DNA of 32,000 nt from an uncultured Actinomycetota bacterium (GTDB taxonomy: Bacteria > Actinomycetota > Actinomycetes > Propionibacteriales > Nocardioidaceae): positions 9,946-41,945 of the forward strand of contig CAVSDS010000007.1 in the NCBI GenBank assembly GCA_963726885.1, given 5' to 3'. Below the pieces are notes generated by a model that was given only the letters and a program-made list of their open reading frames with translations, had not been told where the DNA came from and did no database searches. Every line of letters starts with the position of its first letter. Positions within the stretch are counted from its first letter, which is position 1. The translations under genes were made by a program, and so were the position numbers. Positions 8,757 through 27,244 of this stretch are shown here, one piece after another.

Positions 8757-9271
8757 ATGAATGACGTTGACTGGTGGGTGTGGCTGATCGTCGCACTCGT
8801 CGTGATCGCGATCGTGCTGGCGCTCGTCGCCGCAGCTCGCAAGCGGAACGTGGAGCACGCACGGACGCGTGCCGCCAGCATCCGGGACGAGGCCGGGGAG
8901 CGCCGTGTCGAGGCACAACGCACCCAGGCGGCATCCGCCGCAGCCGAGGCCGACGCAGCCGAGGCGAAGCTGGAGGCCCAACGCCTGGAGCAGCGCGCCG
9001 CCGAGCTCGGGAACGAAGCGTCGACCGCCGATGCGGAGGCCGTTGAACGGGCGCGGAAGGCGGACAGCATCGATCCCGACGTGAGACGGACCGTGACCCC
9101 TCGCCGGGAGACGGCGAGGTCGGCAGGGACCGCGACGTCGATGTCGATCGAAACCGCGATGCGGACTTCGACGCCGACCGCCGGGACGACTCGGTGGGTC
9201 GGGACGACTCGGTACGTCGGGACGACTCGGTACGCCGGGACGACGACGGGTCCGTTGCCCGCTGACGACCT
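8757..9271 (+). CDS. small N-terminally anchored coiled-coil protein with Asp/Arg-rich repeat tail (needs a -1 correction near 9081-9086; as sequenced it reads on into the next gene)
   Basis: GGGAGG sits 7 nt upstream of the ATG at 8757. The N-terminus has a TM helix (WWVWLIVALVVIAIVLALVAAA) followed by an Ala/Glu/Arg coiled-coil region. After about 9083 the frame ending at TGA 9269-9271 (ETDRDPSPGDGEVGRDRDVDVDRNRDADFDADRRDDSVGRDDSVRRDDSVRRDDDGSVAR*) has coding-like composition (G-rich position 1, low-GC position 2). The track frame (TVTPRRETARSAGTATS...) does not. Confidence 0.4.
9183..9244 (+). repeat. 18-bp tandem repeat, 3 full units plus a partial fourth
   Basis: The units are GGGACGACTCGGTGGGTC (9183-9200), GGGACGACTCGGTACGTC (9201-9218) and GGGACGACTCGGTACGCC (9219-9236), followed by GGGACGAC... 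(9237-). They encode the hexapeptide repeat RDDSV(G/R) in the proposed frame. Confidence 0.85.
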
Positions 9272-10003
9272 CGGTACAGCCGTCGAGCTGACGGCACCGG
9301 CGAGACGCGTCGTCTCGCTCGTGCCGTCGCTCACCGAAGCCATCGCGGCGACTCGGCCCGAGGCGCTCGTCGGCGCCACCGACTGGTGCACGCACCCGGC
9401 CGACCTCGACGTCGACCGCGTACGGGGCACCAAGAATCCCGACCGGTCCGCCATCGCGGAGCTGGCGCCGGACCTGGTCGTCGCGAACCAGGAGGAGAAC
9501 CGCGAGCTGGACGTCGAGCGGTTGCGGGCCGACGGCATCGCCGTGTGGGTGACCCGCATCCGCACGCTCGACGAGGCGTTCGCCTCGATGCGGCGCCTGT
9601 TCACCGAAGCGGTCGGCTGGGACGTGCCGCACTGGCTGGAGGAGGCCGAGCAGGTCTGGTCCCGTCCTGCGTCGGCAGGCGGGCCGCGAGTCGCCGTCCC
9701 GATCTGGCGAGACCCGTGGATGGTGGTCGGCAGCGACACCTTCACCGGAGACGTGATCGCGCGGCTCGGCTGGCAGAACGTCTTCGAGGACAGCGACGAG
9801 CGCTACCCACGCATGGAGCTGGGCGAGATCGACCGCGACGACGTCGACCTCGTGCTGCTGCCGGACGAGCCCTACGTCTTCGGACCCGAGGACGGGCCCG
9901 AGGCCTTCACCCACGCGCCACCGCACTCGTCTCGGGCCGCGCACTGACCTGGTACGGGCCGTCACTGATCACGGCACGCGCCGAGCTGCAGGCAGTCCCT
10001 TAG
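9255..10003 (+). pseudogene. BtuF/TroA-like 'helical backbone' binding protein (cobalamin/metal-chelate binding family), -1 frameshift near the C-terminus as sequenced
   Basis: The core reads DDLGTAVELTAPARRVVSLVPSLTEAIAATRPEALVGATDWCTHP...DLVVANQEEN. The frame ends ...EAFTHAPPHSSRAAH* at 9947, but the frame of ORF 9386..10003 continues as TALVSGRALTWYGPSLITARAELQAVP*. One base appears to be missing around 9917-9922. The start is uncertain: TTG at 9255 gives (M)PADDLGT, and in-frame ATGs also exist at 9141 and 9159. No signal peptide is evident. Confidence 0.55.
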
Positions 10004-11402
10004 TCGTCGTCGCGATCCTGCCGAAGGCCCTCGACGCCTTGGCTGGCGAGCGTCTCGGCGTTCTTGCGGGCCTGCCGTGCCGACAACGCGCGGGGGGCCT
10101 GCCGGGCGTCGACCACGAACGGCTCGTCGGCCATCACGTACGGGGTCTCGCCCACGATCGCGTTGTGGCTTCCCGACGAGAGGTACTTGGCGCTGAGGTT
10201 GACGAGGGTGGCGAACCGGTTGCGGTTGCCGAGCAGCGTCACGATGTGCAGGCCGACCCAGATGACCCAGGCCGGGAAGCCGGTCAGCTTCGGCAGGAAC
10301 TTGATCTCCGCGACCGCGGAGGAGCGCCCGATGGTGGCCATCGTGCCCTTGTTGAGGTACTTGAACGGCTTGCGGGTCTTGCCCTTGAGATCGGCCTTGA
10401 TCACCTTCGCGACGTACTTGCCGCCCTGGATGGCGGGCTGGGCCAGCTGCGGCAGCTCATCCGGAGCCGATCGAGACGTCACCGATCGCGAAGACGTTGT
10501 CGAGGCCCTTGACGCGTCGCTGCTCGTCGGTCTCGATGCGGCCGCCGCGGCCCTGCGGCACGCCCCAGTCGGCGACGGACGGGTGCGCCGTGATGCCGCG
10601 TGGCCCAGACGACGATGCCGGCAGGAAGGAACTCCTGCTCGCCGTCGTGCTCCACCAGGACGCCGTCCTCGCGCACCTCCTTCACGGCGGTGTCGAGACG
10701 GAGGTCGACGTCGCGCTTCAGCAAGGATTTGCTGGCGTACTCACGCAGCTTCGGGGCGAACGGGCTGAGCACGTGCGGCAGCATCTCGACGAGGGTGATG
10801 TGGATGCGCTCGCGGTCGAGCTCCGGATAGGTGGTGGGCATGTCGAGGTTGCGCATCTCGGCGAACGCGCCCGCCGTCTCGACGCCGGTGGCGCCGCCGC
10901 CGACCACGACGATGCGCAGGTCGCGCTCCTGACCGTTGATGGCCGCGTACTCGAAGTTCGCGAACATCCGGTCGCGCACCTGGAGGGCCTGGGAGCGCTT
11001 GTAGAGCGGCATCGAGTACTTGTCGGCGCCGGGGACTCCGAAGAAGTTCGTGGTGACGCCGACGGCGATGACGAGGTAGTCGTACTTGACGTCGACGCCG
11101 CTCTCGAGGTGGAGCGTCTTGGCATCGTGGTTCATCGTCTTGACGACGCCCTTGAGGAAGCGGACGTTGCTCTGCTTGCCACGGATGGCGCGCAGGAACC
11201 AGGTGATGTCGCCCGGGTTCAGGCTGGCGGTCGCCACTTGGTACAGCAGCGGGTTGAACGTGTTGTAGGTGTGCCGGTCGATCAGGGTGACGTCGACGTC
11301 GGCGCGCTTGAGCTTGCGGACGGCCGCGATTCCTCCGAATCCGCCGCCCACGACGACGACGTGCGGACGCTTGCCGGACGCGGTGGTGGGAGTGGCGCTC
11401 AT
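10000..11402 (-). pseudogene. ndh: type II NADH dehydrogenase (NDH-2), two +1 frameshifts as sequenced
   Basis: ORF 10479..11402 carries two Rossmann motifs (VVVVGGGFGGIAA and VVVGGGATGVETAG). After ...GIVVWA the middle frame reads GITAHPSVADWGVPQGRGGRIETDEQRRVKGLDNVFAIGDVSIGSG. ORF 10000..10482 then supplies DELPQLAQPAIQGGKYVAKVI... The breaks lie at about 10596-10603 and 10458-10485. 1403 nt minus 2 gives 466 aa. Confidence 0.85.
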
Positions 11403-15458: not shown

Positions 15459-16296
15459 TCAGGTGCCCAGAGAGGGCGGCTGGTCCTTTGTGTAGGTTTC
15501 CTTCGTTGACGATGCGCATGTGTCGCACGGTGAAGTCGCGGAGATACCGCACCTGACGGCCGCTCAGCTTGTCGCAGGCCCATTCCCAGTGCATCGAGAT
15601 CCAGTCGCCCACCTCGAGGTCGTCCATCATGCTGACCCCGTCGACCGACCGCTCGACGGTCTCGGTGATGCGTTCGCCGAAAGCCAGGGTTCGCCCATCC
15701 CATGTCAGCGGGGTCGACTCGACGACCACCTGGTCACCGTGGACCGCCTTCACCTTGCCCCAGCGGATACGGCACTGGTCCAGCACCGTGAGGGCGTGCT
15801 CGGCCTTGCGGCCGTCGCTCAGCAGTCCGGTCCAGGGGTAGATGCAGAACACGGCGAAGCTGTGGTGCGGGACGCCCCCGGCGTTGACGCTCTCAGTCAG
15901 AGTCGAGAAAGCCGACCCGGTCATCGCCCGGAAGCGGTCCTCCATCGAGTTGCCGACCGCTGTCGGCGTGACCCGGTTGAGGCGCGAGTTGCCCGACCCA
16001 GTAGGCGTCGACCACCCGGCGGTCGAGTGGGTCGTCGAGGCCGAGCGAGGCCGCGATGAGCTCGAGGTACGGCCAGGCTCCCGCGAACTGGCGGGAGAGG
16101 GAGCGAAGGCCGAGGTCGACGTCGTCGGACGTCCTTCGGCACCGTGCCCTTGGGCGCCTTCGGCACCGTGCTCGAAGAACGCGCCGTGGTCGGCCGGGCC
16201 GCAGTAGCCGTGGGAGTTGGGCGGGAACGCGTACCGAGCGAACAACACCGGTCCGCTGACCGGTGTGCGACGCCGCACGGCCGTCTGCTCAGACAT
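15459..16296 (-). pseudogene. hydrogenase-cluster-associated conserved protein (resembles what I recall as DUF6390), three frame disruptions as sequenced
   Basis: The N-terminus reads VLFARYAFPPNSHGYCGP. The middle segment is only sensible in another frame (DDVDLGLRSLSRQFAGAWPYLELIAASLGLDDPLDRRVVDAYWVG). The sequence then returns to the first frame (NSRLNRV...HHSFAVFCIYPWTGLL...WEWACDKLSGRQVRYLRDFTVRHMRIVNE). The tail frame gives ETYTKDQPPSLGT* with its stop at 15459-15461, 15 nt before the next ATG. The breaks lie at about 16125-16170 (-1), 15992-15994 (+1) and about 15500 (+1), so the net length is consistent with 278 aa. Confidence 0.55.
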
Positions 16297-16546
16297 CGCT
16301 GGCCTCGTCCGGCTCGCGCGCCTGTCCCATCATCTCCAGCCCAGACATCGCCTCGGCTGCCGCTTCGGCGTCGACGATCTCGAGGGCGAAACCCATGTGG
16401 ATGAGCACCCAGGTCCCAGGTCGTGGGGGATCGTCGAGCATCCCGATGTTGATGGTGCGCTGCACGCCTTCGACGTCGACCATGGCCAGCTGGTCGCCGT
16501 GTCCGTCGACCATCTCGACGACCCGTCCGGGGATGCCCAGGCACAT
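16289..16546 (-). CDS. hypC: [NiFe]-hydrogenase assembly chaperone HypC/HupF family
   Basis: 85 aa starting with MCLGIPGRVVE, the invariant N-terminal Cys. GGGAGGA lies upstream. The ATG is 2 nt after the protease stop. The 3' end overlaps the next gene's start by 8 nt (ATGTCTGA). Confidence 0.88.
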   Translation of the reverse strand: MCLGIPGRVVEMVDGHGDQLAMVDVEGVQRTINIGMLDDPPRPGTWVLIHMGFALEIVDAEAAAEAMSGLEMMGQAREPDEASDV

Positions 16547-16548
16547 GG

Positions 16549-17043
16549 TCAGGTCCTCCCTCGGGCCGCAGCATCGGCCGGGACGTGCTCGTCGATGACC
16601 CGCCGGACGGCCTCGGCCGCCACCGGCACGGCGGCCTGCACCTGCGGGCTCAGGCCGATGCCTTCCTCGACGCTCGCCGGGCGGCACCCGACCACGAACG
16701 TCGGTGGCAGCTCGCCCCCGAGGGCACGGAGGCTGCCGAGGACGGCGAGCGGGTCCATGCCGTGTGCATCCAGCTCGGCGGTACCGATGTCGTCCGGTCC
16801 GACCTGCATGACGACCACGTCGCCGGGCGCGCCCTCGCCGGGCATCGCATCGACGATGACCAGCGCCGTGCAGCCGTCGAGCAGGTCGTACGCGAGGTGC
16901 ATGCCGCGGATGCCGTAGTCGACGACGCGTACGTCGCCGGGCAGCGTGTCCTCGGCCGTGAGGTGTCGCGCGACCTCCGGCCCGAAGCCGTCGTCGCCGA
17001 GGAACAGGTTGCCGATGCCGGCGACCAGGATCGAGGAGCTCAG
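16549..17043 (-). CDS. [NiFe]-hydrogenase maturation endopeptidase (HupD/HybD family); start codon unresolved
   Basis: The frame reads SSSILVAGIGNLFLGDDGFGPEVARHL...VVDYGIRGMHLAYDLLDG...ALVIVDA...GTAELDAHGMDP. There is no ATG, GTG or TTG between the upstream in-frame stop and this conserved N-terminus. The start is therefore either the CTG at 17043 (a CTGA overlap with the upstream stop) or the ATG at 17048 with one C missing from the run at 17043-17045. Confidence 0.8.
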   Translation of the reverse strand: MSSSILVAGIGNLFLGDDGFGPEVARHLTAEDTLPGDVRVVDYGIRGMHLAYDLLDGCTALVIVDAMPGEGAPGDVVVMQVGPDDIGTAELDAHGMDPLAVLGSLRALGGELPPTFVVGCRPASVEEGIGLSPQVQAAVPVAAEAVRRVIDEHVPADAAARGRT

Positions 17044-17351
17044 GGCATGTCCTCCGCCCTGCCGGTGCCACCGGTATGGTCCGGGCCGGTCTCACCCGTG
17101 CCCTCGCCGGGGTCGTCGGACTCCTCCTGTGCCGGCTGCTCGTCGGCGGGCGATGCCGTCGCGCCGCCTTCCGTCTCGTCCGGGTCGGGTTCACTCGGCC
17201 CGTCGGACGACGAAGGAGCGGCAGCTCCGGCCGTGCTCGGATCGTCACTTGCGGTTCCTCCGCCGGGGTCAGCCGACTCCTTGCGGTCGTCGTACGGCGG
17301 GACGGTCTTGCCCTCGGTGTCCGGGTTGTCCGGATCGGGAATCGTCGTCAT
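17040..17351 (-). CDS. acidic, Pro/Asp/Glu/Gly-rich low-complexity protein (103 aa)
   Basis: GGAGG lies 5 nt upstream of the ATG at 17351. The sequence is MTTIPDPDNPDTEGKTVPPYDDRKESADPGGG...EESDDPGEGTGETGPDHTGGTGRAEDMP*. It is co-directional and tightly packed within the hydrogenase operon. I recognise no family. Confidence 0.4.
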   Translation of the reverse strand: MTTIPDPDNPDTEGKTVPPYDDRKESADPGGGTASDDPSTAGAAAPSSSDGPSEPDPDETEGGATASPADEQPAQEESDDPGEGTGETGPDHTGGTGRAEDMP

Positions 17352-17352
17352 G

Positions 17353-17556
17353 TCAGCCTCCGCTCTGCAGGTCCGGGGACTCAGGGTCGATGGGCTCCTG
17401 TGGATCGACTCCGGAGTCGTCGTCCTCATCCGCATGTCCGACCGGGCGGTCAGCCGGGCCGGCGTCGGGCCCTTCGGAACCCTCGTCGCGCGACCCCTCT
17501 GGTCCACGCTCCTCCTGCGGCTCCTCGGTCAGGCCTTCTCCTGGTGTCTCGCTCAT
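17353..17556 (-). CDS. acidic low-complexity protein (67 aa)
   Basis: GAGGAGGAGG lies directly upstream of the ATG at 17556. The sequence is MSETPGEGLTEEPQEERGPEGSRDEGSEGPDAGPADRPVGHADEDDDSGVDPQEPIDPESPDLQSGG*. The stop is 1 nt before the next ATG. Confidence 0.4.
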   Translation of the reverse strand: MSETPGEGLTEEPQEERGPEGSRDEGSEGPDAGPADRPVGHADEDDDSGVDPQEPIDPESPDLQSGG

Positions 17557-17587
17557 GTCCTCCTCCTCGGCTTGGTGGTCGGCGCAC

Positions 17588-17707
17588 TCACATGCGCCGC
17601 ATCTTCAGGTACCGGTTGATGTCGGGGATGGACATCAACAACACGATGATCCCCGCGAGCACGACAACGGCGATGACGCTGGTGGTGATGATGCCGATGA
17701 CTCTCAT
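17588..17707 (-). CDS. 39-aa single-pass membrane miniprotein (not in the ORF track)
   Basis: The ATG at 17707 overlaps the stop of the 465-aa gene (ATGA). The product is MRVIGIITTSVIAVVVLAGIIVLLMSIPDINRYLKMRRM*: one hydrophobic helix and a basic PDxxRYLKMRRM tail. It resembles short actinobacterial DUF-type miniproteins as I recall them, but this is unverified. Confidence 0.5.
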   Translation of the reverse strand: MRVIGIITTSVIAVVVLAGIIVLLMSIPDINRYLKMRRM

Positions 17708-19101
17708 GGGTGAATCTCCTCTCTGTCTGCGCTGGTCTCGACGGGCATGGGTTTCAGCTCGTCAGGTGAGAAGTAGAAGTAGCGGCCGTACCACTCGTGC
17801 ATGTCCGCGGCAGGATCGTCGACCAGCACCACCGCGACGTGCGAGCCGCCGTCGACGTCGGAGAGCACCGCGGTGACGCGGGCGACCTTGCCGGCGAAGA
17901 AGATGTCGTGGGCGTCGGCGCGACGACTCGGATGGACCGTGACGAGGCTGCCCTTCGACACGCTCACCCCGTCGATCACCACCGCGTCGGTCTCTGGTGA
18001 GACCGCCTCGTCGGTCTCCGGGTCCCACCACGGGACGTCGTCGTCAGCACCGAACGTCGGCGGTTCGACGTCACGGATGTCGGACAACACCGGCCACGAC
18101 GGTTCCTCCGGTGCCGCGACTGGAGCGCCGGCGTGCGGGTTGCGCAGGATGCCGTGCATCTGAGCCAGCGTCTCCGGCGTCATCTCGTCGCAACGGTCGA
18201 TGATCTCTCGGGCCTTCGGGTCGGTCGCTCGTGCCTCGGCCTTCTCCTCATCGGTCATCGTCATGACGCGCAGGGTGAGGATCTCGTCGATCTCGGTCGC
18301 GTCGTACAGGGCGCCGGGGCTCTCCGCCGCGATCTCGGGATGGTCGTACAGGATGATCGGCAGACCGAGGACGAGGTCCGTGTCGCCCGGCTCACCGCCG
18401 AGCACAGGCCAGCACCGGTGCTGGGAGCACGCGACCGCCGCGTCCACCAGCTCATCAGGCGGCTCGAACAGAGACACGAACTCGGCGTCGTGCGCCTCGA
18501 TGATGACGTGGGTGCCGATGAGCGAGTACCGGGTCGCCTCGATCGCATCTGCACCGCAGCCGTCATGGAGGTTGGACACGGTGATATCGAGGCGTTCGCA
18601 TCCATCCACCGGTGCGGTCGCGAGGTGGATCTCGGCGTTCAGCGGCCACTGGCGGCGAATCACGCTGCCCACGCCCTCGGCGAGCTGCTGCACATCCTGC
18701 CCACCCTCGACCTGGACGGGAAGGACGATGCCGCCCGCCTCGAGATCGAACCGGGACAGCTCGAAGGTGAGCTCCTGCTCCACGGCCTCGTCCCAGCTCA
18801 ACCACGACGTGCCGGCGGCGTCAGTGAGCTTGGCAACCGGCATGCCGTCTGCGTCATGCAGGCCGCGGTGCTGTAGCTGGAGGAACCGCAGGTGCACCAC
18901 GAGCCGCGCGGACGACGTGAGCAGGCACTGCATCGACATCGTCGAGGACTCACCGACTCCGGCCGCCTCGGCGCCCACCGGACCGAGCACGCCGAACTGC
19001 CAGCGCGTCTGGTTCTTGCTCGAGCTCGCGCGGTAGGGATACAGCAGGTACCCCTCGTAGAGGACGGCGTCGGCGACGGCCCGGGCCAGGTCGAGCCTCA
19101 T
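17704..19101 (-). CDS. conserved hypothetical protein (465 aa), hydrogenase-cluster associated
   Basis: Intact ORF. The ATG at 19101 overlaps the upstream stop (ATGA). The N-terminus reads AVLYEGYLLYPYRASSSKNQTRWQFGVLGP. I cannot assign any domain. Confidence 0.7.
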   Translation of the reverse strand: MRLDLARAVADAVLYEGYLLYPYRASSSKNQTRWQFGVLGPVGAEAAGVGESSTMSMQCLLTSSARLVVHLRFLQLQHRGLHDADGMPVAKLTDAAGTSWLSWDEAVEQELTFELSRFDLEAGGIVLPVQVEGGQDVQQLAEGVGSVIRRQWPLNAEIHLATAPVDGCERLDITVSNLHDGCGADAIEATRYSLIGTHVIIEAHDAEFVSLFEPPDELVDAAVACSQHRCWPVLGGEPGDTDLVLGLPIILYDHPEIAAESPGALYDATEIDEILTLRVMTMTDEEKAEARATDPKAREIIDRCDEMTPETLAQMHGILRNPHAGAPVAAPEEPSWPVLSDIRDVEPPTFGADDDVPWWDPETDEAVSPETDAVVIDGVSVSKGSLVTVHPSRRADAHDIFFAGKVARVTAVLSDVDGGSHVAVVLVDDPAADMHEWYGRYFYFSPDELKPMPVETSADREEIHP

Positions 19102-19739
19102 GGCGCCACCTCCGCCCGCGAGTGCAACAGGTGCGAGAGCGTCTCTTCCCAGGACGTGAGTCCGTGCTCCGTGCGGTAGGCGGCGACCTCATCGAGCACG
19201 TCGGCGTCGACACGCAACCAGCCGGTGTGCGGGTAGTACATCTCGATCATCTGGCGCCAGACGGCAACCGGCATCTGGTGACTGGTGTCGCAGTCCCAGG
19301 GCACCTGCTCCACGGCGAATCCGTTCTCGCCGCGCGTGAAGATGACCCCCGAGAACATGAAGGACAGCGGCACGTCGCCGTCGCCGACGGCGTGAAGGTA
19401 GCGCGAGCCGACCACTTCGAAGTCGTACGTGGCCGGCATCGGGAGGTCGACCTCCGTCACTCCCGTGAAACCCTGCACGGTGGTGCTGCACTGCATCCAC
19501 AGGAACGGGCGCAACGTCTCGGACCAGCGCTCGCGATCACCGAACAGGTCGCGCAGGCCCGCGGCGTCGTCGTCGGAGTACCCACGTCGCTGTGGGTCGA
19601 TGCGGACCTGGCAGCGCAGGGCGATCGCGTGGACGACGACGCCGGTGCTCTCCTCGATGTGCAGGCGGGCGGTGAGCTGGGGCGCGGCCGCGTAGGGCTC
19701 GGCGAAGACATCGAGGACACGGAAGTCGAAGCTGCTCAC
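19098..19739 (-). CDS. conserved hypothetical protein (213 aa; resembles what I recall as DUF6084)
   Basis: The GTG at 19739 is preceded by GAGGAGGGG 5 nt upstream. The protein starts (M)SSFDFRVLDVFAEPYAAAPQLTARLHIEESTG.VVHAIALRCQVRIDPQRRGY. In the track it forms the C-terminal half of ORF 19098..20543. Confidence 0.65.
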   Translation of the reverse strand: MSSFDFRVLDVFAEPYAAAPQLTARLHIEESTGVVVHAIALRCQVRIDPQRRGYSDDDAAGLRDLFGDRERWSETLRPFLWMQCSTTVQGFTGVTEVDLPMPATYDFEVVGSRYLHAVGDGDVPLSFMFSGVIFTRGENGFAVEQVPWDCDTSHQMPVAVWRQMIEMYYPHTGWLRVDADVLDEVAAYRTEHGLTSWEETLSHLLHSRAEVAP

Positions 19740-20405
19740 GACTGCCCCTCCTCGACCGCGCGGGGCGGGGCGGCTGCGCGACTGGACCATCGCGAAGAAC
19801 TTCTCCATGGCGGCCCGGGCCTCCTGACCTCCGTCGAACCCGCGCCACGTCTGGCGCATCGTGCCGACGAGCTCGTAGCAGACGTCGATCGGCACCAGCG
19901 TGCAGACGAAGTCGCCGCGGTCGTGGTCGGAACGATGGATGAGCAGGGCCTCGACGTCGGGCAGCAGGGCTCCCAGCTGCGGATTCGTCTCGAGGAGGCG
20001 GTCCCACGCCTCCAGGGGCAGCTCGGACTCCGTCGCGCCGGCCGGGCTGGGATAGAACGCCACCAACCGGTCCTGCACCGAGTTGCGGAAGCAGAAGACC
20101 AGGCCCACCGGGATCTGAAGATCGTCCCAGGCTGCCTGGTCGAGCACGAAGTCGTCGAAGGAGAGATATCGGTCGGGCACCGCCCGGTATCTCAGCTGCG
20201 CGGTCTGGTCGGTGAAGAGCAGGTAGCACGCGCGGCACGTGCACATCAGGCTGCGCGTCTCGAGGCCGACGACGTGCTGGTGCTCCTCGGTGATCGGCTC
20301 CGCGCACATCTCGCACCGCTCTCCGGGCACGACCTGAGGGCGTGTGGTGCTGATGCGTCTCAGGGTCGCGAGCGGCACACCGCCGCCGCGACCCGGGCCG
20401 GTCAT
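19736..20405 (-). pseudogene. Cys-rich conserved hypothetical protein (resembles what I recall as DUF5947); as sequenced it reads through into the next gene (probable +1 indel near the 3' end)
   Basis: The ATG at 20405 overlaps the hhyE stop (ATGA). A Cys cluster is present (GERCEMCAEPITEEHQHVV...LMCTCRACYLLF). The alternative frame near the end reads ...AAAPPRAVEEGQS* with a TGA that overlaps the next GTG (GTGA at 19736-19739). The length of 670 nt equals 3n+1. The break cannot be localised better than about 19740-19800. Confidence 0.6.
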
Positions 20406-21331
20406 GCCACCTCGGGAGTCAGGACGGCGACGGAGATCGTGTCGCCCTCGGTGAGCAGCGGGAGCGGGTCGAGGTGAAGCTCGGGCACGTCGATGCAGCT
20501 GCCGGCCTTGCGGACGTCGTAGTGCACCTGGCAGCTGGGGCACCTGAGCAGGGCGTCACCGGTGGCGCCGCCGAGGCGTCGGGCGAGCACGGATCCGGCC
20601 AGGCTGGACTCGCACCTCGCGCAGCGGTCGACGTAGGCGAAGATGTCCGAGCCGATCCGGCAGGCCAGCACGCTGGTGTCGCCGACGCGAGTGGTGAGGA
20701 CCTCCCCTGCCCCGAGGCCGGCAAGCTCGGCGACCGGGTGCCAGGCCCCGCTGGGCGCGTCCTCGTGCAGGCGCGACATCAGTGAGCCCACCGGGATGAG
20801 AGCCGGACCGGCCGGTGCCGACTCCGACGGTGTCTCGACCTCGATGGACACCACCTCCGGTGCGGCCGCCTCGATCGCACCCTCGACGGCGAGCTTCAAC
20901 GTCACCGAGGACGACGGGCAGCCGTCGCAGCTGCCGAGCAGCCGGAGGCGCACGGTGCCGTCGTCGGTCACCGCGAGCAGCTCGACGTCGCCGCCGTGCG
21001 AGCCCAGGTAGGGCCGCACGCTCTCCAATCCATCCTCGACCCGCTGCTCGACGCTGTACGGGTGGAGCCCGTGCACCAGCAACAAGCCGGAGACGAGCTC
21101 ATCAGAAGCAAGCTCGCGCAGGAGGTCGTCGTCGAGGTGGCCGGACTCGTGCAAGATCTCCATCGCCCGTTCAAGTCCCGACCCATACAGGTCGGTCACC
21201 AGCCTGACCAGCTCCTCAGCACGTTCACGGGCGACCACACCGCCAGTGGCACTCGCCGTCAGGAGCGCATCGATGCGTTCGCCAGTCGCACCCAGGTCTG
21301 ACGTCTGATCAGGTGACTCCTCGTGCGCCAT
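20402..21331 (-). CDS. hhyE: NifU-C-terminal-domain / Rieske-like-domain iron-sulfur protein (HhyE-like)
   Basis: 309 aa. It has a NifU-type segment (VRPYLGSHGGDVELL...GSCDGCPSSSVTL). The C-terminal beta-rich domain carries C237-x2-C240-x23-C264-x2-C267-x2-H270. The gene lies immediately downstream of hhyL, the position of HhyE in mycobacterial Hhy loci. Confidence 0.7.
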   Translation of the reverse strand: MAHEESPDQTSDLGATGERIDALLTASATGGVVARERAEELVRLVTDLYGSGLERAMEILHESGHLDDDLLRELASDELVSGLLLVHGLHPYSVEQRVEDGLESVRPYLGSHGGDVELLAVTDDGTVRLRLLGSCDGCPSSSVTLKLAVEGAIEAAAPEVVSIEVETPSESAPAGPALIPVGSLMSRLHEDAPSGAWHPVAELAGLGAGEVLTTRVGDTSVLACRIGSDIFAYVDRCARCESSLAGSVLARRLGGATGDALLRCPSCQVHYDVRKAGSCIDVPELHLDPLPLLTEGDTISVAVLTPEVA

Positions 21332-25584: not shown

Positions 25585-26049
25585 ATGACGACCGCGAGCA
25601 CCGACGCCGCCCTCGCGATTCTGCGCTCCCACGGAGAGCGAGTGACGGCCGCTCGACGTGCCGTGATCGAGGCCCTGCAGCCGCACGACCACCTCACCGC
25701 AGACGAGATCGCGGCCCGCGCCGAGGCGGCCGCACCGGGCGTCCACCGCACCACGGTGTACCGGGCGCTGGCCACCCTGGGCGAGGTCGGACTGATCGCC
25801 CACACCCATGTGGCGGGCTCCGCCACGATCTACCACCTGACCGCCGACAGCGATGCCGACGACCACCACGCGCTCGACCACGCGCACGTGCAGTGCACCG
25901 AGTGCGGGTCGCTCTTCAACGTCGAGGACCGGCTGCTCACATCGCTCGCCGACGACCTCGAGCGGGAGATCGGATTCCGGCTCGACGTCCACCACGCCGC
26001 ACTGCTGGGCATCTGTGCACAGTGCAGAAAATCCGCGGCGTCCGACTGA
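25585..26049 (+). CDS. Fur-family metalloregulator (Nur-like candidate)
   Basis: 154 aa. It has a winged-helix N-terminus (RVTAARRAVIEAL...HLTADEI...VHRTTVYRAL) and a His cluster (HTHV...DHHALDHAHVQC). There are two CxxC pairs (CTEC and CAQC). The gene is divergent from hypA and directly upstream of a nickel permease. Confidence 0.8.
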   Translation: MTTASTDAALAILRSHGERVTAARRAVIEALQPHDHLTADEIAARAEAAAPGVHRTTVYRALATLGEVGLIAHTHVAGSATIYHLTADSDADDHHALDHAHVQCTECGSLFNVEDRLLTSLADDLEREIGFRLDVHHAALLGICAQCRKSAASD

Positions 26050-26076
26050 AAATCGACCCTCGGTCATCCACTGCTC

Positions 26077-26093
26077 TTGCAACACTGTTGCAT
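26077..26093. promoter_or_regulatory. Nur-box-like palindrome TTGCAA-N5-TTGCAT
   Basis: The sequence is cTTGCAAcactgTTGCATc, 57 nt upstream of the permease ATG. It matches 11 of 12 positions of the tTGCaa-N5-ttGCAA operator reported for Streptomyces Nur (from memory). A CATGGT -10-like hexamer lies 18 nt after the first TTGCAA, so the site would overlap the -35 region. Confidence 0.5.
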
Positions 26094-26149
26094 CTGGGGG
26101 CATGGTGAGATCTCCGGCGTGATGCCGGGACGGGCAAGGAGGGCTCGCC

Positions 26150-27244
26150 ATGTCGGTGCGACTCACCGGTCGGATCAGCCGGCCGGAAGCCCGGTCGATG
26201 GTCGGCATGACCGCCGTCATCGTGGCGTTGCATGTCGTCGGCTGGGGCGCTCTCCTCATCGCCGCCAGCCAGGACCTCCGGCTCGGCAGCGCCGGAGTCT
26301 TCGGCATCGGCCTGGGCGTCACGGCCTACACCCTCGGCATGCGCCATGCCTTCGACGCCGACCACATCGCCGCCATCGACAACGTCACTCGCAAGCTGCT
26401 GGCCGACCGTCAGGACCGAGGCCGGCCTCTGTCGGTCGGGTTCTGGTTCTCACTCGGGCACTCGAGCGTCGTGTTCGGCCTGTGCCTGCTGCTGGCCCTC
26501 GGCGTGCGGTCGTTGGGCGGCCAGGTCGAGGACGATTCGTCCGCCCTGCAGCAGACGACCGGCCTGATCGGGATCAGTGTGTCGTCGATCTTCCTGATCC
26601 TCATCGGCGTGCTCAACGCGACGGTGCTCGTCGGCATCCTGAAGGTCTTCCGCGAGATGCGCACCGGGCACTACGACGAGGCCCAGCTGGAGGACCATCT
26701 GCAGAACCGCGGGCTGATGAACCGGATCCTCGGCCGCACCACCCGCGCCGTGACGAAGCCGCGGCACATGTATCCCGTCGGTCTCCTGTTCGGCCTCGGG
26801 TTCGACACCGCCACGGAGGTCTCCCTGCTGGTGCTGGCCGCCGGCGCGGCGGCGTCCCAGCTCCCCTGGTACGCGTTCCTCGCGCTGCCGATCCTCTTCG
26901 CGGCCGGCATGAGCCTGCTCGACAGCATGGACGGAGCATTCATGTCGATGGCGTACGGCTGGGCGTTCGTCCAGCCGGTGCGCAAGATCTACTACAGCAT
27001 CATCGTGACGGGGCTCTCGGTCGTCGTGGCGCTGCTCATCGGCGGCGTCCAGGTCGTCGGCCTGGTGAGCGAACGCCTCGACGTCACCGACGGCCTGGTC
27101 GGCTGGATCGCGGCACTCAGCCTGGACGACGTGGGTTACCTGATCGTGATCGTGTTCGCCGTGACGTGGGCGCTCGCGGTCGCGGTGTGGCGCTTCGGCC
27201 GCATCGAAGAACGCTGGACGGCGACCGACGGAACCATCGGCTGA
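26150..27244 (+). CDS. NiCoT-family nickel/cobalt permease (HoxN/HupN/NixA)
   Basis: 364 aa. The signature RHAFDADHIAAIDN is in TM2, and FSLGHSSVV, LGFDTATE and LLDSMDG follow. AAGGAGGG lies 7 nt upstream of the ATG. Confidence 0.9.
   Translation: MSVRLTGRISRPEARSMVGMTAVIVALHVVGWGALLIAASQDLRLGSAGVFGIGLGVTAYTLGMRHAFDADHIAAIDNVTRKLLADRQDRGRPLSVGFWFSLGHSSVVFGLCLLLALGVRSLGGQVEDDSSALQQTTGLIGISVSSIFLILIGVLNATVLVGILKVFREMRTGHYDEAQLEDHLQNRGLMNRILGRTTRAVTKPRHMYPVGLLFGLGFDTATEVSLLVLAAGAAASQLPWYAFLALPILFAAGMSLLDSMDGAFMSMAYGWAFVQPVRKIYYSIIVTGLSVVVALLIGGVQVVGLVSERLDVTDGLVGWIAALSLDDVGYLIVIVFAVTWALAVAVWRFGRIEERWTATDGTIG

Follow-up and report, generated by a model that had tools for sequence, protein, structure and literature searches.

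An uncharacterised gene block in the group 1h [NiFe]-hydrogenase operon of a Nocardioidaceae bacterium: conservation across phyla and a possible role in enzyme assembly

Background

Much of the atmospheric H2 that soils remove is taken up by group 1h (Hhy/AH) [NiFe]-hydrogenases. The DNA studied here is a stretch of 32,000 nucleotides (nt), hereafter the window, from an uncultured bacterium of the Nocardioidaceae (contig CAVSDS010000007.1, positions 9,946 to 41,945), and it carries the genes of such an enzyme. Its G+C content is about 69%, and the closest protein matches bear Aeromicrobium or Nocardioidaceae names. Between hhyE, which encodes a putative iron-sulphur (Fe-S) protein, and the gene of the HupD-type maturation endopeptidase lies a block of tightly packed genes, all on the minus strand (17040-20405). 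What do the products of this block do for the hydrogenase? They are obvious candidates for three roles: maturation of a group 1h enzyme in air, its targeting to the membrane without a twin-arginine translocation (Tat) signal or anchor subunit, and the acceptance of its electrons. An initial annotation of the window described the block as six genes without assignable function and suggested that a small membrane protein among them might tether the enzyme.

The block is not new to the literature. It appears there as "four ORFs of unknown function PHG066-69" in Cupriavidus necator and as MSMEG_2717 and its neighbours in Mycobacterium smegmatis, and the products are called hypothetical proteins. 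Judged by homology and gene order, the block in the window is a further instance of this known, functionally uncharacterised gene set, and its members are orthologous to PHG067-069 and MSMEG_2717-2715. We searched the literature by the names of the domains of unknown function (DUF), by locus tags and for Hhy structures, and found neither a functional or structural study of the block families nor a structure of an Hhy complex, in agreement with the initial view that the proteins have no known biochemical role. The supplement text of Cordero et al. does not mention MSMEG_2715 to MSMEG_2718, hence it offers no mass-spectrometry evidence on them.

Conservation of the block

The locus is a group 1h hydrogenase operon. 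As membership criterion we used the published L1 and L2 motifs of the large subunit, and both of them, TSRICGICGDNH and SFDPCLPCGVH, occur verbatim in the 599 amino acid (aa) HhyL (23139-21340, minus strand; Pfam/NCBIfam). According to Pfam and NCBIfam the gene order is hypB-hhyS-hhyL-hhyE-DUF5947-DUF6084-465-aa protein-DUF6893 miniprotein-two acidic proteins-hupD-hypC, and then DUF6390 and a FecCD-type ATP-binding cassette (ABC) transporter. The statement that none of the block proteins could be assigned did not hold for three of them, as profile searches place them in Pfam families DUF5947, DUF6084 and DUF6893.

To find related loci, one genome per species was scanned for the 465-aa protein; at least 580 genomes held a relative, and the 80 best loci were compared. 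The order from hypB to hypC given above, with the acidic pair as an optional member, is constant in these 80 loci wherever the contig reaches. An Acidimicrobiia-type contig and a Methylocystis parvus plasmid have the same core, and so does C. necator pHG1, where it consists of hofK, hofG, a 192-aa NifU protein, DUF5947, DUF6084, a hypothetical protein of 476 aa and the protease. The block is thus real and conserved from actinobacteria to proteobacteria. Group 1h genes are present at every related locus examined, including those of C. necator pHG1 and the Methylocystis plasmid; it should be noted that this test of co-occurrence is one-directional, as the loci were recruited through the 465-aa protein and not through HhyL.

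The genes are also linked by overlaps. The junctions ATGA at 20402-20405 (where the hhyE stop overlaps the next start), 19098-19101 and 17704-17707, TGAcATG at 17349-17355 and CTGA at 17040-17043 were all confirmed, and only the TGA within the GTGA at 19736-19739 is out of frame in the given sequence. Among the related loci the 4-nt overlap of DUF5947 with DUF6084 is kept in 67 of 76, and that of DUF6084 with the 465-aa gene, the most conserved junction, in 73 of 80. Because these 4-nt overlaps are conserved, they support coupled translation of DUF5947, DUF6084 and the 465-aa protein as a functional unit, in line with the co-translation that had been proposed. A scan of the block for promoters and terminators gave none above shuffled expectation.

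The 465-aa protein and its fusions to the maturation protease

The largest block protein (465 aa; 17704-19101, minus strand) has no Pfam model. It belongs to the MSMEG_2715/PHG069 family by full-length homology and by its position between DUF6084 and the hydrogenase protease: a tblastn match to the pHG1 hypothetical protein has an E-value of 5e-48 with 31% identity over 94% of the length, and a 60% identical homologue is named "Uncharacterized protein MSMEG_2715" in one source. The family is large, with at least 8000 matching clusters at 90% identity and 3771 matching representatives at 50% identity (E at most 1e-3).

The strongest pointer to a function comes from the longest members of this family. 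Seven of the ten longest representatives (P0143, P0152, P0160, P0162, P0166, P0220 and P0250) carry a C-terminal HycI/HupD domain. These are in-frame proteins of 606-682 aa from at least seven divergent clusters, and their junctions are clean, as in ...PEEIEPLARSVLVAGIGN..., where the end of the 465-aa part (YF.PDE(V/L)E) is followed by a short linker and the protease N-terminus VLVAGIGN.FLGDDGFG. Several full-length members of the clusters derive from independent JGI, NCBI (an Acidimicrobiaceae metagenome-assembled genome) and Logan samples. In the Acidimicrobiia-type contig (L087) the fused gene (9001-10938) lies within an operon that is typical in other respects, and a 34-aa DUF6893 gene comes after it. 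Among the members of the block only the 465-aa protein takes part in protease fusions.

Gene order points the same way. In C. necator the gene of the 465-aa family overlaps the protease gene by 4 nt, and in one locus, L085, it also overlaps the protease gene and is the sole gene between hhyL and the protease. L085 lacks DUF5947 and DUF6084, therefore the parts of the block are separable. The partner in these fusions acts a single time, on the precursor of the large subunit, and this argues that the 465-aa protein takes part in maturation.

In the AlphaFold 2 (AF2) model of the protein, which has a predicted local distance difference test score (pLDDT) of 87.8, the N-terminal domain is rich in beta structure, a conserved acidic segment (TEIDEILTLR...) is helical and the C-terminal part forms an SH3-like barrel. 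Foldseek of the model against the PDB gave no informative relative, and the family profile found nothing below E 0.7 among PDB sequences. The barrel (residues 370-455 approximately) superposes on PetP, a subunit of cytochrome b6f, with a root mean square deviation (rmsd) of 2.3-2.4 Å over 73 columns and a template modelling score (TM, normalised to the target) of 0.66-0.77, and a similar small barrel forms the C-terminus of nitrile hydratase beta. These matches are weak (E 7e-3 to 1e-2, identity 22-23%) and the fold is common, hence they carry little functional information for the 465-aa protein.

Two other leads were dropped. A likeness of the N-terminal part to DrmA (E 2e-6) had a TM of only 0.27 and an rmsd of 22 Å, and no function was taken from it. 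A role in anti-phage defence, which the DrmA match had brought up, was abandoned as the uncharacterised families of the block had no matches in the PADLOC, PHROGs and NCBIfam libraries.

As a side observation, the near-invariant C-terminus R-E-E-(S/I) of the 465-aa protein is encoded by AGAGAGGAG (17704-17725), directly 5' of the overlapping ATG of the miniprotein. Its conservation may therefore be due to a ribosome-binding site no less than to a constraint on the protein.

The DUF6893 minigene

The next gene encodes a protein of 39 aa (17588-17707, minus strand) which matches Pfam PF21833 (1.2e-13; 51.3 bits against a cut-off of 24.6). It consists of one hydrophobic helix and a conserved tail, SIPDIxRYLKxRxM-stop. 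A copy was found in 78 of the 80 loci, with a length of exactly 39 aa in 75 of the 78. The helix is variable, and the tail, (R/K)S(I/L/V)PD(I/A)xRY(L/M)(K/R)xRxM-stop, is nearly fixed. The gene always adjoins either the 465-aa gene or the protease gene, in either order.

A hidden Markov model built from the 78 copies was then used to search the proteobacterial loci. On C. necator pHG1 it matched a minigene of 33 aa (L089 8978-9079), MKGFLKYLVLPALVVALLANIKDIRRYIRIRSM, with an E-value of 3.5e-6; this minigene lies directly after the protease and has an AGGAGG-type ribosome-binding site upstream. A weaker match of 32 aa, ...FRDIVRYIKITMM, was found at a similar place after the protease on the Methylocystis parvus plasmid (L090 8705-8803). 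Both are absent from the gene tables examined, and each combines one hydrophobic helix with the tail D-I-x-R-Y-I-(R/K)-I-x-x-M-stop. As the model found copies in both organisms, the DUF6893 minigene, recognised by its predicted product, belongs to the cross-phylum core. The idea that it is limited to organisms with a membrane-bound Hhy was rejected on account of the copy in C. necator and the weaker one in Methylocystis.

DUF5947, DUF6084 and an extra base

The remaining two members of the core raise a problem of reading frame. The initial annotation had placed a separate gene at 19736-20405, however these 670 nt are not a multiple of three and do not form an open reading frame (ORF) in the given sequence. 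The ATG at 20405 is instead in frame with the GTG at 19739, which gives one ORF of 435 aa (19098-20405) with DUF5947 at aa 30-210 and DUF6084 at aa 224-432. Six ORFs is the ancestral layout of the block, and the literal sequence encodes five.

The cause is one base. The closest relative we obtained, L083 from a JGI metagenome, is 94.4% identical to the window in DNA and has two separate genes of 221 and 213 aa with a 4-nt overlap. Alignment to L083 by blastn, a further alignment and frame analysis show one extra G in the window at 19761 (minus strand), 23 nt before the TGA at 19736-19738, which shifts the DUF5947 frame past that stop; up to 19761 the DUF5947 product is 98.6% identical to its L083 counterpart. 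The two parts are likewise split in a second relative, whose 465-aa protein is 82% identical, and in 75 of the 76 related genome loci in which both parts are present, with L005 as the only fused case. Other single-base indels against L083 fall within DUF6390, at 15995 and 15471, along with a frame-scrambled stretch of about 50 codons, and the remaining differences between window and L083 are mostly synonymous. As one base separates the two forms, other indels are present and the rest of the differences are of this kind, the fusion is probably a sequence error, while a recent real mutation may also be the cause.

Hence the fusion was rejected as Rosetta-stone evidence of an interaction. The same caution applies to the databases: proteins with both domains (P0270-P0310) are mostly single-member ENA entries, and several (e.g. 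P0276, P0278, P0280, P0282 and P0291) contain out-of-frame segments. They look like frameshift artefacts, for the larger part, arising at the ATGA/GTGA overlap, and database users should be warned accordingly. In contrast, the HycI/HupD fusions of the 465-aa family have multi-sample support.

The DUF5947 part (19740-20405, minus strand; reading through into DUF6084 here) matches Pfam PF19372 at 5e-74, with 248.2 bits against a gathering cut-off of 25 and over profile positions 1-176 of 177. Its conserved residues are C31-x2-C34, H42/H44, C55-x-C57-x2-C60 and C176, and their conservation extends to C. necator and Methylocystis. The CxxC...CxCxxC cluster, which to the initial annotation suggested a metal or Fe-S site, is thus present and widely conserved, and the pattern fits a putative metal site. 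Among the block proteins such a motif occurs only in DUF5947. With regard to a possible rubredoxin- or zinc-ribbon-type site at its N-terminus, the model has short predicted strands there, and a comparison by hhalign to the rubredoxin HoxR gave a probability of 0.2%.

The DUF6084 part (213 aa from GTG 19739; 19098-19739, minus strand) matches Pfam PF19562 at 1e-91, with 306.7 bits against a gathering cut-off of 25. It is modelled as an immunoglobulin (Ig)-like beta-sandwich and C-terminal helices. Foldseek against the PDB returned only generic beta-sandwich matches with TM below 0.45, among them weak matches to LEA14 (At2g46140, PDB 1yyc) and to an ApaG-type chain (PDB 1xq4), and a function was therefore not taken from the fold. 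Fold and profile searches gave no redox-cofactor motif or redox fold in DUF6084 or the 465-aa protein.

The two acidic proteins

Between the miniprotein and hupD lie the genes of two acidic, disordered proteins of 67 aa (17353-17556, minus strand) and 103 aa (17040-17351, minus strand). The first has a motif, EEPQxERGxxGSRDxGS...GGPxDRPxG...PDLQSGG, that is kept in about 20 loci, and the second has the short conserved motifs TVPPY(D/E)xR(K/R)ES and ASPxDEQPA...GTGRxED. These motifs are kept across Nocardioidaceae, Streptomyces, Jatrophihabitans and Pseudonocardiales, and in the Nocardia loci L053, L063 and L078 both sets occur in one ORF of 105-108 aa. Against L083 the codon differences are mostly synonymous in all of the small genes (three synonymous and one non-synonymous in DUF6893, four and one in the 67-aa gene, three and one in the 103-aa gene). 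All three ORFs, found where they had been annotated together with the 465-aa ORF, are real genes by this coding signature and their kept motifs. Since only about 22 of 78 loci have the acidic pair, it is a lineage-specific addition and not part of the core.

What the block may do

Taken together, the comparative evidence favours a role in assembly over the membrane tether that was suggested at the outset. Our preferred reading, held tentatively and rated just short of an even chance, is that the block, with the 465-aa protein and HupD at its centre, is a module for the assembly and maturation of this particular enzyme, and that its products are not permanent subunits of catalysis or electron transfer. 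From what is seen directly, namely orthology, synteny, overlaps, fusions, the cysteine motif and coding status, we infer the following steps. The 465-aa protein would be a chaperone or adaptor dedicated to the large subunit, holding pre-HhyL and bringing in the HupD endopeptidase, possibly with its SH3-like domain presenting the C-terminal extension of HhyL. DUF5947, with its putative metal site, and the DUF6084 beta-sandwich would form a unit with the 465-aa protein, and this unit may, together with the Nfu-like HhyE, help with the insertion of metal or Fe-S clusters when air is present. The DUF6893 helix would place the assembly platform at the membrane. That DUF6084 and the 465-aa protein have no redox motif or redox fold agrees with this reading, as do the reported compositions of the enzyme in native gels and after purification, both given below. 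Islam et al. explicitly left an assembly role possible for the Fe-S proteins of the operon.

Several observations weigh against this. The block genes lie in an operon that the field calls structural, PHG067, the C. necator orthologue of DUF5947, has been proposed as an electron acceptor, and an Fe-S cluster could be held by the five to six Cys residues and the His residues that are conserved in DUF5947. In the AF2 model of the fused DUF5947-DUF6084 protein (pLDDT 88.7) the single domains are confident, yet the predicted TM score is only 0.53 and mutual packing of the domains is not supported. Comparison by hhalign of the DUF5947, DUF6084 and 465-aa families with the C. necator proteins HoxL/O/Q/R/T/V, HypA-F and HypX gave probabilities below 3% for every pair. 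Finally, Methylacidiphilum is reported to have an active, membrane-associated group 1h enzyme without the block genes, so the block is no general requirement for the maturation of group 1h enzymes.

The main competing view, that of the initial annotation, makes the block proteins stable partners of mature HhySL: DUF5947 and HhyE would relay electrons, the miniprotein would anchor the enzyme near menaquinone, and the others would form a scaffold in the manner of HucM. The M. smegmatis enzyme speaks for a tether of some kind, as it is found in the membrane fraction only, withstands 5% cholate and lacks a known anchor, and as membrane association is thought to be important for high affinity; the single helix of DUF6893, with its basic, strongly conserved tail of cytoplasmic type, would suit that task, just as the conserved Cys/His motif of DUF5947 and the proposal for PHG067 would suit an electron relay. 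HucM was likewise a "hypothetical" gene of a structural operon until the Huc structure. However, that the 465-aa protein is joined to the protease in several lineages is hard to reconcile with a permanent subunit, and in native gels only HhyL, HhyS and HhyE were reported to migrate together. The C. necator enzyme is described as cytoplasmic, although a DUF6893-like minigene is found there and in Methylocystis, and this weakens the simple reading of the miniprotein as anchor of the mature enzyme, as does the membrane association of the Methylacidiphilum Hyd-1h without it. We consider this view rather doubtful. A division of roles, in which the 465-aa protein and HupD mature the large subunit, HhyE and DUF5947/DUF6084 are redox partners and the miniprotein anchors the finished enzyme, would agree with L085, which keeps only the 465-aa gene near hhyL and the protease, with protease fusions that involve the 465-aa protein alone, and with a metal motif confined to DUF5947; the overlap of DUF6084 with the 465-aa gene, the most conserved one of the block, suggests one functional unit instead, and we regard such a division as distinctly unlikely.

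It is very improbable, in our judgement, that the block serves protection in dormancy, desiccation or sporulation, with the acidic proteins and the LEA14-like sandwich acting as protectants outside catalysis and assembly. Hhy activity does rise late in persistence, lagging its transcript, and both the disorder and short motifs of the acidic proteins and the weak LEA14 and ApaG-type matches could be read in this way; the fold matches are generic Ig-like sandwiches, though, most loci lack the acidic proteins, and neither the protease fusions nor the Cys motif would be explained. Part of the probability is given to none of these four readings. A stronger form of the assembly reading would have the 465-aa protein found a new class of large-subunit chaperone that recruits the endopeptidase, and in some lineages is covalently joined to it, with the putative metal protein DUF5947 and DUF6084 on a membrane platform held by DUF6893. 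We think this rather unlikely, but if true, the group 1h hydrogenase would be finished and handed over at the membrane, which would explain both its maturation in air without a Tat signal and the persistence of M. smegmatis Hhy on the membrane in detergent. Whichever of these readings is preferred, the protease fusions, the cross-phylum minigene and the overlap-linked unit of DUF5947, DUF6084 and the 465-aa protein are new leads that make the label "hypothetical" experimentally addressable.

Comparison with known systems

The closest counterparts are PHG066-PHG070 of C. necator and MSMEG_2718-2715 of M. smegmatis, where the same families stand in the same order from the NifU-type protein to the protease. 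The window differs from C. necator in that its HhyE (309 against 192 aa) has an extra Rieske-like domain, the miniprotein gene stands before the protease gene and not after it, two acidic proteins are inserted, and DUF5947 and DUF6084 are literally fused by the 1-nt insertion. The C. necator enzyme, when purified, reportedly consisted of HofK and HofG only.

HycH of Escherichia coli is a helper in the maturation of Hyd-3, and other [NiFe] hydrogenases likewise have accessory proteins that are specific to the large subunit. The role proposed for the 465-aa protein is alike in that an enzyme-specific helper would act on the unprocessed large subunit together with a dedicated endopeptidase, whose gene is close by. 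There is no sequence relationship: no block protein has a Pfam match to HycH, and Pfam and NCBIfam revealed no known maturation factor. The 465-aa protein is also much larger, has a different predicted fold, and its function is suggested by fusions and gene order only.

HoxO, HoxQ, HoxR, HoxT and HoxV are enzyme-specific helpers of the O2-tolerant membrane-bound hydrogenase of C. necator, and they are comparable as operon-encoded proteins of an aerobic H2 oxidiser whose genes lie between the structural and hyp genes. HoxR is a small Cys4 metal protein and DUF5947 may be similar in kind, however with every pair below the 3% given above these proteins are not homologues of the block proteins. 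Against HoxZ, the b-type cytochrome anchor, hhalign gave probabilities below 1%, and the only hydrophobic element of the block is the helix of the 39-aa protein.

HucM, a coiled-coil scaffold of 189 aa in the mature group 2a hydrogenase Huc, links Huc to the membrane and to menaquinone. It resembles the block proteins as a formerly hypothetical product of the structural operon of an atmospheric-H2 hydrogenase without a classical membrane anchor. Unlike HucM, which is seen in the mature complex, the block proteins are known here from their genes, and their hydrophobic part is the 39-aa helix only.

Flanking genes

The flanks of the block were as first annotated, with HhyE on one side and a HycI/TIGR00072 protease on the other. 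Upstream, hhyE (20402-21331, minus strand) encodes 309 aa with NifU-like (Pfam 1.8e-21) and Rieske-like (1.5e-4) domains. The size of this protein varies among the operons: it has 192 aa in C. necator (NifU family; L089 5091-5669), and its slot in the Acidimicrobiia-type (L087 7112-7657) and Methylocystis operons is taken by proteins of 174-181 aa without an annotated domain. Further upstream on the minus strand are hhyS (24223-23168) and a hypB-like cobW gene (25260-24361), both by Pfam/NCBIfam. The N-terminus of HhyS, MPTAEAIKAEETLIHVLWINAGLSCDGDS, is without an RR motif and without a hydrophobic signal as judged by eye, hence the description of the enzyme as Tat-less stands.

Downstream, the hupD-type endopeptidase gene (16549-17043, minus strand; TIGR00072 6.6e-36, Pfam HycI) has no ATG, GTG or TTG upstream of the sequence for its conserved N-terminus ILVAGIGN...DDGFG (17043-16902). 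The conserved start position, at -8 from GxGN, is here the CTG at 17043, with a GGAGGA 6 nt upstream. Among the 80 loci the codon found there is mostly ATG or GTG, with CTG in about eight and ATC in about nine. We conclude that hupD probably starts at CTG 17043, in what looks like non-canonical initiation; gene callers shorten the protein to 117-131 aa. The hypC gene (16289-16546, minus strand; Pfam HupF_HypC 9e-23) follows.

The operon is also flanked by metal-supply genes. Upstream, in divergent orientation, are the genes of a Fur-family regulator and of a NicO nickel transporter (25585-27244, plus strand), and a transporter consisting of a periplasmic binding protein, a FecCD protein and an ABC ATPase lies downstream of DUF6390 (15443-12540, minus strand); the relative L082 has the same metal-supply neighbours. 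The DUF6390 gene itself (16296-15459) carries frame-breaking indels against L083, especially at about 16165-15995 and at 15471, and a 1-nt insertion near its 3' end lengthens the ORF to 422 aa and lets it run into the next gene. Taken with the extra G at 19761, these indels suggest that either the sequence contains errors or the tail of the operon is decaying.

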